A stretch of DNA of 64,000 nt from Escherichia coli (lineage in GTDB: Bacteria > Pseudomonadota > Gammaproteobacteria > Enterobacterales > Enterobacteriaceae). The notes beneath the pieces were generated by a model. It was not told where the DNA came from and did no database searches. It was given only the letters and a program-made list of their open reading frames with translations. Shown piece after piece: positions 25,637 through 53,886 of this stretch. The position numbers and the translations under genes are program-made. Each line of letters opens with the position of its first letter. The first letter of the stretch is position 1. The DNA lies in assembly GCF_017348835.2 (NCBI RefSeq), contig NZ_CP071375.1. The stretch is one strand, 5' to 3'.

Positions 25637-26502
25637 CTTATTGCCCCGCGACAGGTTTCAGCTCGATACGCTTGATATCGCCCACCAGCACCAGGTAGCT
25701 CAGTACCGCGATTAAGGCATGAACACCAACATAAATCAGCGCCCCATTAAACGAGCCAGTCGTGCCAACGATATAACCAATTGCGATTGGCGTGACGATG
25801 CCAGAAATGTTACCGAACATGTTGAACAGGCCACCGGAAAGACCGCTGATCTCTTTTGGCGCGGTATCTGCCATTACTGCCCAACCCAGCGCCCCAATGC
25901 CCTTACCGAAGAAGGCCAGCGCCATAAAGCCGATGATCATCCACTCAACGTTGACGTAGTTGCAGAACACCATCACCATCGACAGCAACATGCCCATTAC
26001 GATCGGTGTTTTACGCGCAATGTTCAGCGATCCCGTGCGGCGCATCAGCCAGTCGGAAATAATCCCACCCAGCACACCACCGATAAAACCACAAACCGCC
26101 GGAACGGAAGCCACAAAGCCCGCTTTCAGAATCGACATCCCACGCGCCTGCACCAGATAAACCGGAAACCAGGTAATGAAAAAGTAAGTCAGGGCGTTGA
26201 TACAGTACTGACCGATATAAACGCCGATCATCATCCGTGACCCGAGCAGCTGTTTGATCTGCCCCCACTTCACGCTGAACGGCACTTTAACTTTGGTGTT
26301 TTGCTGATCCATATTGATCAGCGCGCCACCCGCGGCGATGTACTCCAGCTCTTTCTGATTTACCCCCGGATGTTGATTTGGCTCGTGGATGACTTTCAAC
26401 CAGATAAAGCTGATGACAATCCCCAGACCGCCCATAAAGAAGAAGACGTGAACCGCCCCGGAAATCCTGGAGACTAAACTCCCTGAGAAAGAGGTAAACA
26501 GG

Positions 26503-26829
26503 ATGACTAAAAATACTCGTTTTTCCCCCGAAGTCCGTCAGCGGGCGATTCGTATGGTTCTGGAAAGTCAGGATGAATATGACTCACAGTGGGCGGCAAT
26601 TTGTTCCATTGCCCCAAAGATTGGCTGTACGCCGGAGACTCTGCGTGTCTGGGTTCGCCAGCATGAGCGGGATACCGGGAGTGGTGATGGTGGACTCACC
26701 ACCGCTGAACGTCAGCGTCTGAAAGAGCTGGAACGTGAAAATCGTGAACTGCGCCGCAGTAACGATATCCTTCGCCAGGCTTCCGCTTATTTTGCGAAGG
26801 CGGAGTTCGACCGCCTCTGGAAAAAATAA
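26503..26829 (+). CDS. IS3-family transposase OrfA (HTH DNA-binding, leucine-zipper-like C-terminus)
   Basis: 108-aa [29 protein letters not shown]...; ends at an A6 run (26821-26826), the presumed -1 frameshift site. Confidence 0.9.
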
Positions 26830-27716
26830 TGCCACTGCTGGATAAGCTGCGTGAGCAGTACGGGGTCGGACCGGTATGCAGCGAACTGCATATTGCCCCG
26901 TCAACGTATTACCATTGTCAGCAACAGCGACATCATCCGGATAAACGCAGTGCCCGTGCGCAGCACGATGACTGGCTGAAGAAAGAGATACAGCGCGTAT
27001 ACGATGAAAATCACCAGGTATACGGTGTGCGTAAAGTCTGGCGTCAGTTGTTACGGGAAGGTATCAGAGTGGCCAGATGCACTGTGGCACGTCTCATGGC
27101 AGTTATGGGACTTGCCGGTGTTCTCCGGGGTAAAAAGGTCCGCACTACCGTCAGCCGGAAAGCCGTTGCCGCATGCGACCGCGTAAACCGTCAGTTCGTG
27201 GCAGAACGTCCAGACCAGTTGTGGGTGGCTGATTTTACCTGGGTAAGCACATGGCAGGGCTTCGTTTATGTGGCGTTCATCATTGATGTGTTCGCCGGAT
27301 ACATCGTGGGATGGCAGGTCTCATCATCCATGGAAACAACATTCGTGCTGGATGCACTGGAGCAGGCGTTGTGGGCCCGTCGGCCGTCCGGCACAATCCA
27401 TCACAGTGATAAAGGTTCTCAGTATGTATCGCTGGCCTACACGCAGCGGCTTAAGGAAGCCGGATTACTGGCATCAACAGGGAGTACTGGCGACTCGTAT
27501 GACAACGCGATGGCTGAGAGCATCAATGGTCTTTACAAAGCGGAGGTAATACACCGTAAGAGCTGGAAAAACCGTGCAGAAGTGGAACTGGCCACACTCA
27601 CGTGGGTGGACTGGTATAACAATCGACGATTGCTGGAAAGGCTGGGCCATATTCCTCCGGCAGAAGCAGAAAAAGCTTATTATGCTTCCATCGGAAATAA
27701 TGATCTGGCAGCCTGA
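26829..27716 (+). CDS. IS3-family transposase OrfB (DDE integrase-core / rve domain)
   Basis: 295-aa ORF in -1 frame relative to orfA; ...YGVRKVWRQLLREGIRVARCTVARLM...HSDKGSQYVS...YDNAMAESINGLYKAE. Confidence 0.9.
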   Translation: MPLLDKLREQYGVGPVCSELHIAPSTYYHCQQQRHHPDKRSARAQHDDWLKKEIQRVYDENHQVYGVRKVWRQLLREGIRVARCTVARLMAVMGLAGVLRGKKVRTTVSRKAVAACDRVNRQFVAERPDQLWVADFTWVSTWQGFVYVAFIIDVFAGYIVGWQVSSSMETTFVLDALEQALWARRPSGTIHHSDKGSQYVSLAYTQRLKEAGLLASTGSTGDSYDNAMAESINGLYKAEVIHRKSWKNRAEVELATLTWVDWYNNRRLLERLGHIPPAEAEKAYYASIGNNDLAA

Positions 27717-28629
27717 GTTCACAGATAAAACACTCTCCAGGAAACCCGGGGCGGTTCAGACGTGTGACCAGCCCACTTCATGCGTCAGCCAGCCCATAAT
27801 CGGCGCGAAGATCACCGTTGCGAAGTATTGAGCGGAGTTAAAAATCGACACCGCCGTTCCCCTTTCCTGCGCCGGAAACCAGGCCGCAACAATGCGACTG
27901 TTGCCGGGGAAAGATGGCGCTTCAGCAAGCCCGACCAGGAAGCGCAGAGTAAACAGGGCAACGATAATGCCGAATCCACTAAAGATATCGACGAAGCCTT
28001 GCAGCAAGGTAAACATCGACCAGATAAAGATCGACCAGAAGTAGACGCGTTTTGAACCAAAACGATCCAGCAACCAACCACCAGGGATCTGCCCGATAAC
28101 ATAAGCCCATGAGAAGGCAGAGAACACATAGCCCATTCCCACGGGATCAAGGCCGATATCTTTGGCCATTTCCGAACCGGCAATAGAAAGCGTAGCGCGG
28201 TCGCCGTAGTTGAAGGATGTGACGATAAACAACATCACCACTATCCAGTAACGAGCATTCGTGCGTTTTTCCACACTGCTCGCAGCCTGACTTAAAGAAC
28301 TCATTGTTGCACTCCTGAAAATTCGCGTTAGCCACGCTCACTCTGGACTGCGACATCGCCAGGAAATCAGAGGTGACGTAGGGTGTTTTTTGCCGTTTTT
28401 ATAGGTCGTTCGCCGAATACGGCGCGTGTTTATATCTGGCAATAGCAGTATAAAAAGCGCGCCATAGCGGCTCACCGTGCAACAACACAACATTAATGCG
28501 TTCAATGAGGCCCGATTTTGGCATTAGCCCTGGACGGTGGAATCCACTTCACGGAAATGAAAACAAGAACAAGAAAGGAAGGGTTAAAACGAAGAAATAA
28601 AGAAGAGTATGAAATGGATCGCTTGACTC

Positions 28630-30317: not shown

Positions 30318-30360
30318 AAAGCAACCTCAATAAGAAAAACTGCCGCGAAGGATAGCAGGA

Positions 30361-30719
30361 ATAAAAAAAGGGAGCACTGTATTCACAGTGCTCCCGGTTC
30401 GTTTCGCAGCATTCCAGCTACTTTTGTTGCTCCCTGCTCATCCTTGACAACTTTTCCTCTGGCCTTGCGGCCAATCGTTCATCCTGAACTATTGCTTCCT
30501 GCTCACACCACCCCGATGTGATACTTCATCCTGAAGTGTCCCTGGCCTTCCTGACCCACCGAATCATCCTGACCGGTTCTCATTCTCCATCCTGGAGGTG
30601 TCCTTTAACGCGTCCTGCGTCATCCTCTTCGCTTCATCCAGAAGCCTTTCCCTGAAACACCATCCTGGTGTGTCCTTCAGAAGTGTCATCATCCTGATGT
30701 TCACTTCGTTGTCTGACTC
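30361..30719 (-). ncRNA. csrB: CsrB small regulatory RNA (CsrA-sequestering)
   Basis: Minus-strand transcript with about 18 GGA-containing motifs (CAGGATG/AGGATG family, seen as CATCCTG on the plus strand), ending in hairpin GGGAGCACTG-loop-CAGTGCTCCC plus U-tract (30363-30395); 5' end approximate. Confidence 0.85.
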
Positions 30720-47853: not shown

Positions 47854-48771
47854 TTATTGTTCATAACGAAAGCGGAATTTTTCTTGTTCAGCAGCGGCTT
47901 TCGCCAGGATCCATTGGCGAAAGGCGGCTATTTTACCCAGTTCTGCCTGGCTGTCATGACAAACCAGATAAAAAGCGTTTTTACTGACCAGAACATCATT
48001 AAACGGGCAAACAAGACGTCCAGCTTCAATTTCAGATTGCGCCATCACGTTATTTGCCAGCGCCACTCCCTGCCCGTGGATAGCCGCTTGCAGCACCATG
48101 GCGCTATGGCTAAAAATTGGCCCTTGCTGAACGTTGATATGATTTAACCCCAACTGTCGGGTATATGTCTGCCAGTCACGGCGCGAAGCATCATGTAATA
48201 ACGTATGTTTAGCCAGATCTTCCGGGGTCTTCAAGGGTTTTTCGCCAGTCAGCAGTAGCGGCGAACACACCGGCAATAAATATTCGGCGTACAGTTTTTC
48301 CACCCGTAGCCCCGGCCAGTTGCCCCGACCATAAAATATCGCCACATCAACATCATCCGCCAGCTTATCTTCCTGACGATCAACCGCCTGGATTCGAACG
48401 TCAATTCCCGGATAAGCTGAATTAAAGCTGGAAAGTCGCGGAACCAACCAATGAATGGCGAAACTGGGGAGTAAACTGACCGTCAACGCCCCCTTGGCGC
48501 TACGGGCCTGGAGTTTACGCGTCGCTTCGGTTAATTGCGAAAATATCTCTTTGATATCGAGGAAATAGCTTTGCCCTTCCTCGGTCAGCAGGAGTGAACG
48601 ATTACGGCGGCGGAACAGTTTTAGCCCCAAAAAATCCTCAAGAGACTTGATTTGATGACTTACTGCGGCCTGGGTCACAAAAAGCTCTTCTGCTGCGCGA
48701 GTGAAACTTAAATGGCGTGCTGCGGCATCAAAAACTCGTAAGGCATTTAGCGGTGGTAATCGTTTAGACAT
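47854..48771 (-). CDS. gcvA: LysR-family regulator of the glycine cleavage system
   Basis: 305-aa ORF MSKRLPPLNALRVFDAAARHLSFTRAAEELFVTQAAVSHQIKSLE... Confidence 0.96.
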   Translation of the reverse strand: MSKRLPPLNALRVFDAAARHLSFTRAAEELFVTQAAVSHQIKSLEDFLGLKLFRRRNRSLLLTEEGQSYFLDIKEIFSQLTEATRKLQARSAKGALTVSLLPSFAIHWLVPRLSSFNSAYPGIDVRIQAVDRQEDKLADDVDVAIFYGRGNWPGLRVEKLYAEYLLPVCSPLLLTGEKPLKTPEDLAKHTLLHDASRRDWQTYTRQLGLNHINVQQGPIFSHSAMVLQAAIHGQGVALANNVMAQSEIEAGRLVCPFNDVLVSKNAFYLVCHDSQAELGKIAAFRQWILAKAAAEQEKFRFRYEQ

Positions 48772-48899
48772 GGCTTTTAAACTTTGATGTTAAATGAATT
48801 TAACAATTAGATCACACTGTGTAACCTATTAGTTTTTTTAATCTGAGCCATTATAAATTGTCCGTTGAGCTTCTACCAGCAAATACCTATAGTGGCGGC

Positions 48900-49105
48900 A
48901 CTTCCTGAGCCGGAACGAAAAGTTTTATCGGAATGCGTGTTCTGGTGAACTTTTGGCTTACGGTTGTGATGTTGTGTTGTTGTGTTTGCAATTGGTCTGC
49001 GATTCAGACCATGGTAGCAAAGCTACCTTTTTTCACTTCCTGTACATTTACCCTGTCTGTCCATAGTGATTAATGTAGCACCGCCTAATTGCGGTGCTTT
49101 TTTTT
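48900..49105 (+). ncRNA. gcvB: GcvB small regulatory RNA (Hfq-dependent, GU-rich R1 region)
   Basis: Divergent from gcvA; begins ACTTCCTGAGCCGGAACGAAAAGTTTTATCGG, contains GTTGTGATGTTGTGTTGTTGTGTTTG, ends at hairpin GCACCGC-ctaatt-GCGGTGC plus T8 (49098-49105). Promoter -35 TTGAGC (48865-70), -10 TATAGT (48888-93). Confidence 0.85.
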
Positions 49106-49121
49106 ACCTTGCGATCGCGAA

Positions 49122-49352
49122 TTACTGATCCAGTTCGACCATCTCTTTCACGTCGGTACGGTTGATCTGCTGTTTGTTGCCATTAGCGTCTTTATACGAA
49201 ATCATACCGGTATCGTTATCAGTCTGTGGTTTGCCGTCAGAGACGATGGTACGTCCGTCATTGGTGTGCATCACATAGTTCGAACCGGAACAGGCGCTCA
49301 GGGCAAAAGTCAGCATACAGGCAGAAATAATTGCGGCAGTCTTTTTCATCAT
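49122..49352 (-). CDS. ygdI: DUF903-family lipoprotein
   Basis: 76-aa [30 protein letters not shown]...; lipobox LSAC. Confidence 0.88.
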
Positions 49353-49540
49353 CTTCTCCTTAAAGCGATTAATAAATCTTAATAGTATTGATTAACAGGC
49401 TAAAATTAACGCCTAACACTATTCAGCATATGTTACTGACGCGGCTTCGCCAGGATATCCAGATAATTCTGATGGTTAGCACTCTCCTTGTATCAAAGTG
49501 AATTTTGCGTCACGATCGGTGCATCAAGCCGAGGAGTACC

Positions 49541-51239: not shown

Positions 51240-52046
51240 TTACCCCTGACGCGCCGCTTTCGCCATCATCTTCTTCAGCGCATGAGAAACCGCAACAAAC
51301 CCAAAGGTGGCGGTCACCATCGTTGCCGCGCCAAATCCAGATGCACAATCCATCCGCTTTGGTCCTTCCGCCGTGGCTTTCATCGCACACACCGTGCCGT
51401 CTGACTGCGGGTACACCAATGCTTCGGTAGAGAACACGCAATCCACGCCGAGCTTACCTTTACTGTTTTTCACTACGCCAAAATCGCTTTTCAGGCGCTC
51501 ACGCAACTTCGCCGCCAGCGGGTCCTGAATCGTTTTCGCCAGATCGGTAACCTGAATCTGCGTTGGGTCAATCTGCCCACCCGCGCCACCGGTCGTGACC
51601 AGCGGGATTTTATTGCGCCGACAATAAGCAATCAGCGCCGCTTTGGGTCGTACACTATCAATGGCATCAATCACGTACGAATAACCGGCACTCATATATT
51701 GCGCTACGTTATCCGGCGTCACGAAATCATCCACCACCGTTACACGGCACTCCGGGTTAATCTGGCGAATACGCTCCGCCATTACTTCCGCTTTTGCCTG
51801 CCCGACGTTATCGCGCAGAGCGTGAATTTGCCGATTGGTATTGGTGACGCACACATCATCCATATCGATAAGCGTGATTGCGCCAATCCCCGTGCGCGCC
51901 AGCGCTTCCGCCGCCCAGGAACCGACACCGCCAATACCGACCACACAAATATGCGCGTCAGCAAACAGTTGCAGCGCTTTTTCACCATACAGACGCGCTG
52001 TGCCACCAAAACGCTGACGCCATGCATCACTAATTACCACAGACAT
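51240..52046 (-). CDS. tcdA: tRNA threonylcarbamoyladenosine dehydratase (ThiF/MoeB-like E1 fold)
   Basis: 268-aa ORF MSVVISDAWRQRFGGTARLYGEKALQLFADAHICVVGIGGVGSWAAEALARTG... Confidence 0.93.
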   Translation of the reverse strand: MSVVISDAWRQRFGGTARLYGEKALQLFADAHICVVGIGGVGSWAAEALARTGIGAITLIDMDDVCVTNTNRQIHALRDNVGQAKAEVMAERIRQINPECRVTVVDDFVTPDNVAQYMSAGYSYVIDAIDSVRPKAALIAYCRRNKIPLVTTGGAGGQIDPTQIQVTDLAKTIQDPLAAKLRERLKSDFGVVKNSKGKLGVDCVFSTEALVYPQSDGTVCAMKATAEGPKRMDCASGFGAATMVTATFGFVAVSHALKKMMAKAARQG

Positions 52047-52064: not shown

Positions 52065-52247
52065 GGGCGAGGTTATCCCTCACCCTAAACGCATAAATGC
52101 CTGATGCGCTACGCTTATCAGGCCTACATAACTCCTGCAATATTTTGGATTTGCATGATTTGTAGGCCGGATAAGGCGTTCACGCCGCATCCGGCATGAA
52201 CAACGCGCACTTAGTCAATAATCAGGATGTGAGGTTACCCCTCACCC
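52065..52247. repeat. Composite REP cluster (BIME-like): two REP units bracketed by two small GC hairpins with near-identical sequence
   Basis: Hairpin GGGCGAGGTTATCCCTCACCC (52065-85); REP GCCTGATGCGCTACGCTTATCAGGC (52099-123); REP GCCGGATAAGGCGTTCACGCCGCATCCGGC (52166-95); hairpin GTGAGGTTACCCCTCACCC (52229-47). Confidence 0.7.
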
Positions 52248-53589: not shown

Positions 53590-53666
<77 letters not shown>

Positions 53667-53699
53667 ATTAAAATTTGATGAAGTAAAGCAGTACGGTGA

Positions 53700-53776
<77 letters not shown>

Positions 53777-53809
53777 ATCAAATTTGATGAAGTAAAAGCA
53801 GTACGGTGA

Positions 53810-53886
<77 letters not shown>

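Follow-up and report, generated by a model that had tools for sequence, protein, structure and literature searches.

The window analysed here is a 64,000-nt stretch of one strand of the Escherichia coli contig NZ_CP071375.1 (NCBI RefSeq assembly GCF_017348835.2). Close to position 49,000 it holds a 350-bp interval between two minus-strand protein genes, gcvA and ygdI, and this interval is made up of a 128-bp control region reaching from the gcvA ATG to the gcvB +1, the 206-bp gcvB gene, and a 16-bp spacer that separates the 3' end of gcvB from the stop codon of ygdI. The principal features are laid out as follows.

47854 to 48771, minus strand: gcvA, the LysR-type regulator controlling gcvB, divergent from it (NCBIfam NF008352, 512.8 bits against a cut-off of 288; gcvA in the K-12 and O157:H7 annotation)
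48772 to 48899, no strand assigned: gcvA-gcvB divergent control region of 128 bp (sequence and K-12 comparison)
48900 to 49105, plus strand: gcvB, gene of the 206-nt GcvB sRNA (full-length RF00022 match and identity to K-12 b4443)
49122 to 49352, minus strand: ygdI, a convergent lipoprotein gene (NF033216, 113.2 bits against a cut-off of 42; K-12 and O157:H7 annotation)

Since the control region, gcvB and the spacer fill all 350 bp, the gcvA-ygdI gap is fully accounted for. The preliminary description had ascribed this gap to a known element divergent from gcvA, and both parts of that claim agree with the layout found here. Farther out, ygdD and rlmM lie beyond gcvA, and the next gene on the plus strand is csdA (NF008126, 813 bits); the order rlmM-ygdD-gcvA / gcvB / ygdI-csdA equals the arrangement in K-12 and O157:H7. 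Within this arrangement ygdI is a mere neighbour that stands outside the GcvB system and marks its 3' boundary.

In a search of the full window with the Rfam 15 models at their gathering thresholds, the GcvB covariance model, RF00022, matched 48900-49105 on the plus strand from end to end (model positions 1-204 of 204, E = 1.1e-46). The score was 199.0 bits against a gathering score of 42, a ratio of about 4.7, and posterior probabilities were about 1 along the entire alignment. A search with this model was the check named in the preliminary description, with a missing match as the disproof; the full-length match left its claim of a 206-nt gcvB sRNA at exactly these coordinates unrefuted. Direct comparison further showed that all 206 nucleotides are the same as those of K-12 MG1655 gcvB (b4443, NC_000913.3 2942696-2942901), which the K-12 record annotates as the ncRNA gcvB, "small regulatory RNA GcvB", flanked by gcvA and ygdI. 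The predicted fold is also unusually stable, with a minimum free energy of -62.1 kcal/mol against -47.1 +/- 4.1 kcal/mol for dinucleotide shuffles (z = -3.63; none of 200 shuffles was as stable). An E-value of 1e-46, taken together with this z-score and the lack of any equally stable shuffle, places the GcvB match far beyond chance. On its sequence, the stretch at 48900-49105 is almost certainly gcvB, the E. coli gene for the trans-acting, Hfq-dependent sRNA GcvB, where Hfq dependence is taken from the K-12 literature. Judged by its identity to the reference, the element is one already known and not new.

We mapped the structural elements and seed regions of GcvB onto the window by combining the Rfam alignment, ViennaRNA folds, a terminator scan and sequence composition, with the following result.

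48908 to 48958, plus strand: SL1, the 5' hairpin (Rfam consensus structure; ViennaRNA MFE and centroid folds, nt 7-61)
48962 to 48988, plus strand: R1, a G/U-rich single-stranded seed and the main target-pairing site (composition and folds; role from PMC9299463)
48993 to 49011, plus strand: SL2 stem-loop (Rfam alignment, MFE fold)
49013 to 49033, plus strand: t1 (SL3), internal Rho-independent terminator, GGTAGC-AAA-GCTACC at 49013-49027 followed by T6 at 49028-49033 (terminator scan, Rfam structure)
49034 to 49043, plus strand: R2, the conserved CACUUCCUGU motif, RNA nt 135-144 (exact match to an invariant stretch of the Rfam consensus)
49044 to 49076, plus strand: SL4, with the R3 seed in its loop (Rfam structure)
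49077 to 49105, plus strand: t2 terminator, hairpin at 49077-49098 and U8 tail at 49098-49105 (terminator scan, Rfam structure, sequence)

This order follows the Rfam layout of GcvB (SL1, a long unpaired linker, SL2, SL3/t1, an unpaired stretch, SL4 and t2), and ViennaRNA independently recovered SL1, SL2, SL3, SL4 and t2. The R1 seed, located between SL1 and SL2, is unpaired in both the Rfam consensus and the centroid fold. The richest 25-nt G/U stretch of the RNA falls here, at nt 65-89 (48964-48988), where 24 of the 25 nucleotides are G or U, in keeping with the GU-rich target-binding region that had been noted from the sequence. The R2 seed has a published role in cycA repression (PMC9299463). 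For R3, the loop of SL4 holds G156, G160 and C162 (49055, 49059 and 49061), the positions that were mutated to define this seed (PMC9299463), and because the identities of nt 156, 160 and 162 match that study, counting from 48900 gives the same nucleotide numbers as in the published work. The two plus-strand intrinsic terminators detected at gcvB by the terminator scan match the published t1 and t2, where the short form of about 130 nt and the 206-nt form end, respectively (PMC1557403). The terminator hairpin with its T8 run that closed the preliminary description of the gene is t2; its hairpin reads AGCACCGC-CTAATT-GCGGTGCT, with eight pairs, six of them G-C, and a loop of six. In sRNAs of this class, Hfq usually binds a 3' module of this kind, a hairpin with a U tail. 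Each feature named in the preliminary description (promoter, GU-rich region, terminator and neighbouring genes) was found again by a separate tool. The preliminary description had passed over t1 (49013-49027 plus T6), R2 and R3, all of which are likewise known features of GcvB.

Part of this region could also be read as coding for a small protein, instead of or besides an RNA, since the open reading frame list contains a 46-aa ORF with an ATG start at 48933-49073 (+) and a 37-aa ORF with a TTG start at 48953-49066 (+). However, no Shine-Dalgarno sequence stands at a suitable distance before either start: the ATG at 48933 is preceded by AAGTTTTATCGGA (AAGTTTTATCGGA-ATG), and the TTG at 48953 lies inside SL1. 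Both frames moreover cut across helices and seeds that are conserved in the RNA and fully accounted for by its covariance model, and E. coli GcvB has been reported to be untranslated (PMC1557403). We therefore rejected the small ORFs within gcvB as coding sequences, given the missing Shine-Dalgarno sequences and the published lack of translation, and we regard a protein product from this locus as wildly improbable.

Upstream of the RNA, a consensus scan recovered a single promoter-like site on the plus strand, a TTGAGC hexamer and a TATAGT hexamer set 17 bp apart, at exactly the coordinates where putative promoter elements had previously been proposed.

48865 to 48893, plus strand: gcvB sigma-70-type promoter, -35 TTGAGC at 48865-48870, 17-bp spacer, -10 TATAGT at 48888-48893 (consensus scan, 9 of 12 matches)

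The +1 position, A48900, lies 6 nt past the end of the -10 hexamer and coincides with the annotated 5' end of K-12 gcvB. The legend to Fig. 1 of PMC1557403 places the GcvA binding region in the gcvA-gcvB interval. A motif search of the control region in the window found ATTAG, the complement of CTAAT, at 48806-48810 (-94/-90) and at 48828-48832 (-72/-68). A LysR-type T-N11-A dyad is present at 48812-48824, starting at -88 from the gcvB +1; like the ATTAG copies, it is described here as a sequence motif and not as a GcvA site.

The K-12 MG1655 gene equals the copy described here in all 206 nucleotides, the R1, R2 and R3 seeds and the terminators t1 and t2 included, and also in its promoter hexamers, its orientation and the genes on either side. 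Across the 350-bp gcvA-ygdI interval the two differ only at positions 48776 and 48819, both located in the gcvA-gcvB control region, upstream of the RNA. At 48776, 5 nt upstream of the gcvA ATG, K-12 has A and the window T; at 48819, which is at -81 from the gcvB +1 and within the T-N11-A dyad at 48812-48824, K-12 has A and the window G. The 350-bp allele carrying 48776 T and 48819 G is 100% identical in many strains, including O157:H7 PV15-279. These substitutions could in principle affect regulation, but they are expected to be neutral, because the allele is widespread.

The closeness of ygdI, whose stop codon is just 16 bp from the 3' end of gcvB, raises the question of whether the region is a gene of its own or belongs to a neighbour, as an extended 3' UTR or terminator region of ygdI or as a leader of gcvA, with the Rfam match being incidental. 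Consistent with transcripts extending out of ygdI, the terminator scan found no minus-strand intrinsic terminator in 48650-49450, the space between ygdI and gcvB included. Against this, the structured RNA is on the plus strand, opposite both gcvA and ygdI, it has its own promoter and two plus-strand intrinsic terminators, and the K-12 annotation treats it as an independent ncRNA gene; a full-length covariance-model match of 199 bits is, in addition, too strong to be incidental. We thus give this untranslated-region reading practically no credence and retain the independent gcvB gene. The same observations do make antisense read-through from ygdI possible, given the 16-bp spacing, the lack of a minus-strand terminator, and the minus-strand sequence past the t2 hairpin, which reads ACAUUAAUCACUAU instead of a U-tract. 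As a speculation that we consider very unlikely, ygdI transcripts might continue in antisense through SL4/R3 and R2, in the 3' half of gcvB, and alter GcvB levels or termination; a second and weaker idea of the same kind is that the substitutions at 48776 and 48819 might shift gcvA/gcvB regulation in this lineage.

We then compared the locus with complete E. coli genomes. The 350-bp intergenic region was matched in 5425 of 5426, with 100% identity in many, and the 206-nt gcvB sequence alone was found at an identity of at least 99% in 5389 of them. One of the 5426 had no match to the gcvB locus at all, and one match was plasmid-borne. In the bovine strain OkiPb01677 (NZ_AP042483.1, locus 3001-4560), the gcvB match ends after nt 125, and the gene of an IS4-like ISVsa5 family transposase lies between this point and ygdI. 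This arrangement suggests that gcvB has been disrupted in OkiPb01677 by a natural insertion. As likened from the literature, the GcvB RNAs of Salmonella and Yersinia pestis belong to the same family, with the same divergence from gcvA, two terminators and regulon logic (PMC9299463, PMC1557403). The Salmonella RNA differs from that of E. coli by 10 nt, and Y. pestis gcvB is 77% similar with a weaker t1 (PMC9299463, PMC1557403); in contrast to these orthologues, the copy in the window is the E. coli form of GcvB. Identity, position, motifs, predicted structure, gene context and conservation of gcvB are all established in this analysis.

For expression, regulation, Hfq binding and target repression in this strain, we infer the behavior of GcvB from published work on K-12, where its sequence is identical. 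In that work, gcvB is divergent from gcvA, whose product activates it at high glycine; under other conditions GcvA and GcvR jointly repress it (PMC9299463, PMC1557403). The RNA is untranslated (PMC1557403) and pairs, assisted by Hfq, with more than 50 mRNAs, mostly through R1, also through R3 and rarely through R2 (PMC9299463). Its targets are mainly mRNAs for amino-acid and peptide transporters and for amino-acid metabolic enzymes, which are repressed post-transcriptionally (PMC9299463), dppA and oppA among them (PMC1557403); the genes of these targets are located beyond the window. GcvB levels are in turn limited by the sponge RNA SroC, a product of the gltI 3' UTR that pairs in SL1 and SL4 and leads to decay of GcvB by RNase E (PMC9299463). 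The main text of PMC9299463, the paper on the regulon, mentions none of five genes of the window, argA, sdaC, ygdI, csdA and mltA.

Carried over to the window, this knowledge suggests the following sequence of events. Transcription would begin at A48900 from the sigma-70 promoter at 48865-48893, which GcvA would activate when glycine is abundant and which GcvA and GcvR would repress otherwise. Termination at t1 would give the form of about 130 nt, and termination at t2 the 206-nt form. The full-length RNA would then pair through R1, or less often through R2 or the SL4 loop with R3, with C/A-rich sites near the ribosome-binding sites of mRNAs such as dppA, oppA, cycA and gdhA, which represent amino-acid and peptide transporters and biosynthetic enzymes. 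Pairing would block translation and promote decay of the mRNA, and GcvB itself would be removed by RNase E cleavage upon pairing of SroC in SL1 and SL4.

Apart from gcvB, the window contains several further RNA features and an insertion sequence. A full-length CsrB sRNA gene was found at 30360-30719 on the minus strand (RF00018, 382.9 bits against a gathering threshold of 71), about 18 kb from gcvB, as an expected neighbour as in K-12. An Rfam match to the ES036 (CssrF) sRNA lies at 52120-52162 on the minus strand (46.5 bits against a gathering threshold of 37.6), just upstream of a 268-aa ORF at 51240-52046 (-), and could belong to the gene upstream, as a terminator or UTR element. Three tandem tRNA-Met (CAU) genes with a spacing of 110 bp occupy 53590-53886 on the plus strand, each scoring 61.4 bits against the Rfam tRNA model. 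At 26449-27758, an IS3-family element of 1310 bp is inserted in gudP, which it splits into ORF fragments at 25638-26435 (-) and 27756-28304 (-). The element carries ORFs at 26503-26829 (108 aa) and 26829-27716 (295 aa), terminal inverted repeats of 25 bp (26449-26473 and 27734-27758, 88% complementary), and an Rfam ALIL frameshift pseudoknot at 26784-26900 on the plus strand (120 bits). Among the best matches, only two other complete genomes, those of the pig strains F2_81 and PE164 (99.8% identity), span the full query in one aligned piece, and in these gudP is split around the element. In WP7-S17-ESBL-04 the query is covered in three pieces at 96.5%, with an IS1203-family element beside gudP, and the remaining matches listed are to the insertion sequence itself, at other sites.

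Among the matches listed for gcvB, every non-K-12 RefSeq genome is without a feature at the gene (for example, NZ_AP018488.1 at 3764602-3764807), and an ncRNA feature is present only in the K-12 reference record, while the records that leave gcvB bare do annotate the AL1L pseudoknot. The missing RefSeq/PGAP annotation of gcvB is an annotation gap and not evidence that the gene is absent. The 350-bp gcvA-ygdI gap is explained by a textbook sRNA gene that leaves nothing to account for, and it matters for bookkeeping only: with gcvB unannotated in the non-K-12 RefSeq genomes listed, annotation-based scans will keep flagging this locus as an empty gap.
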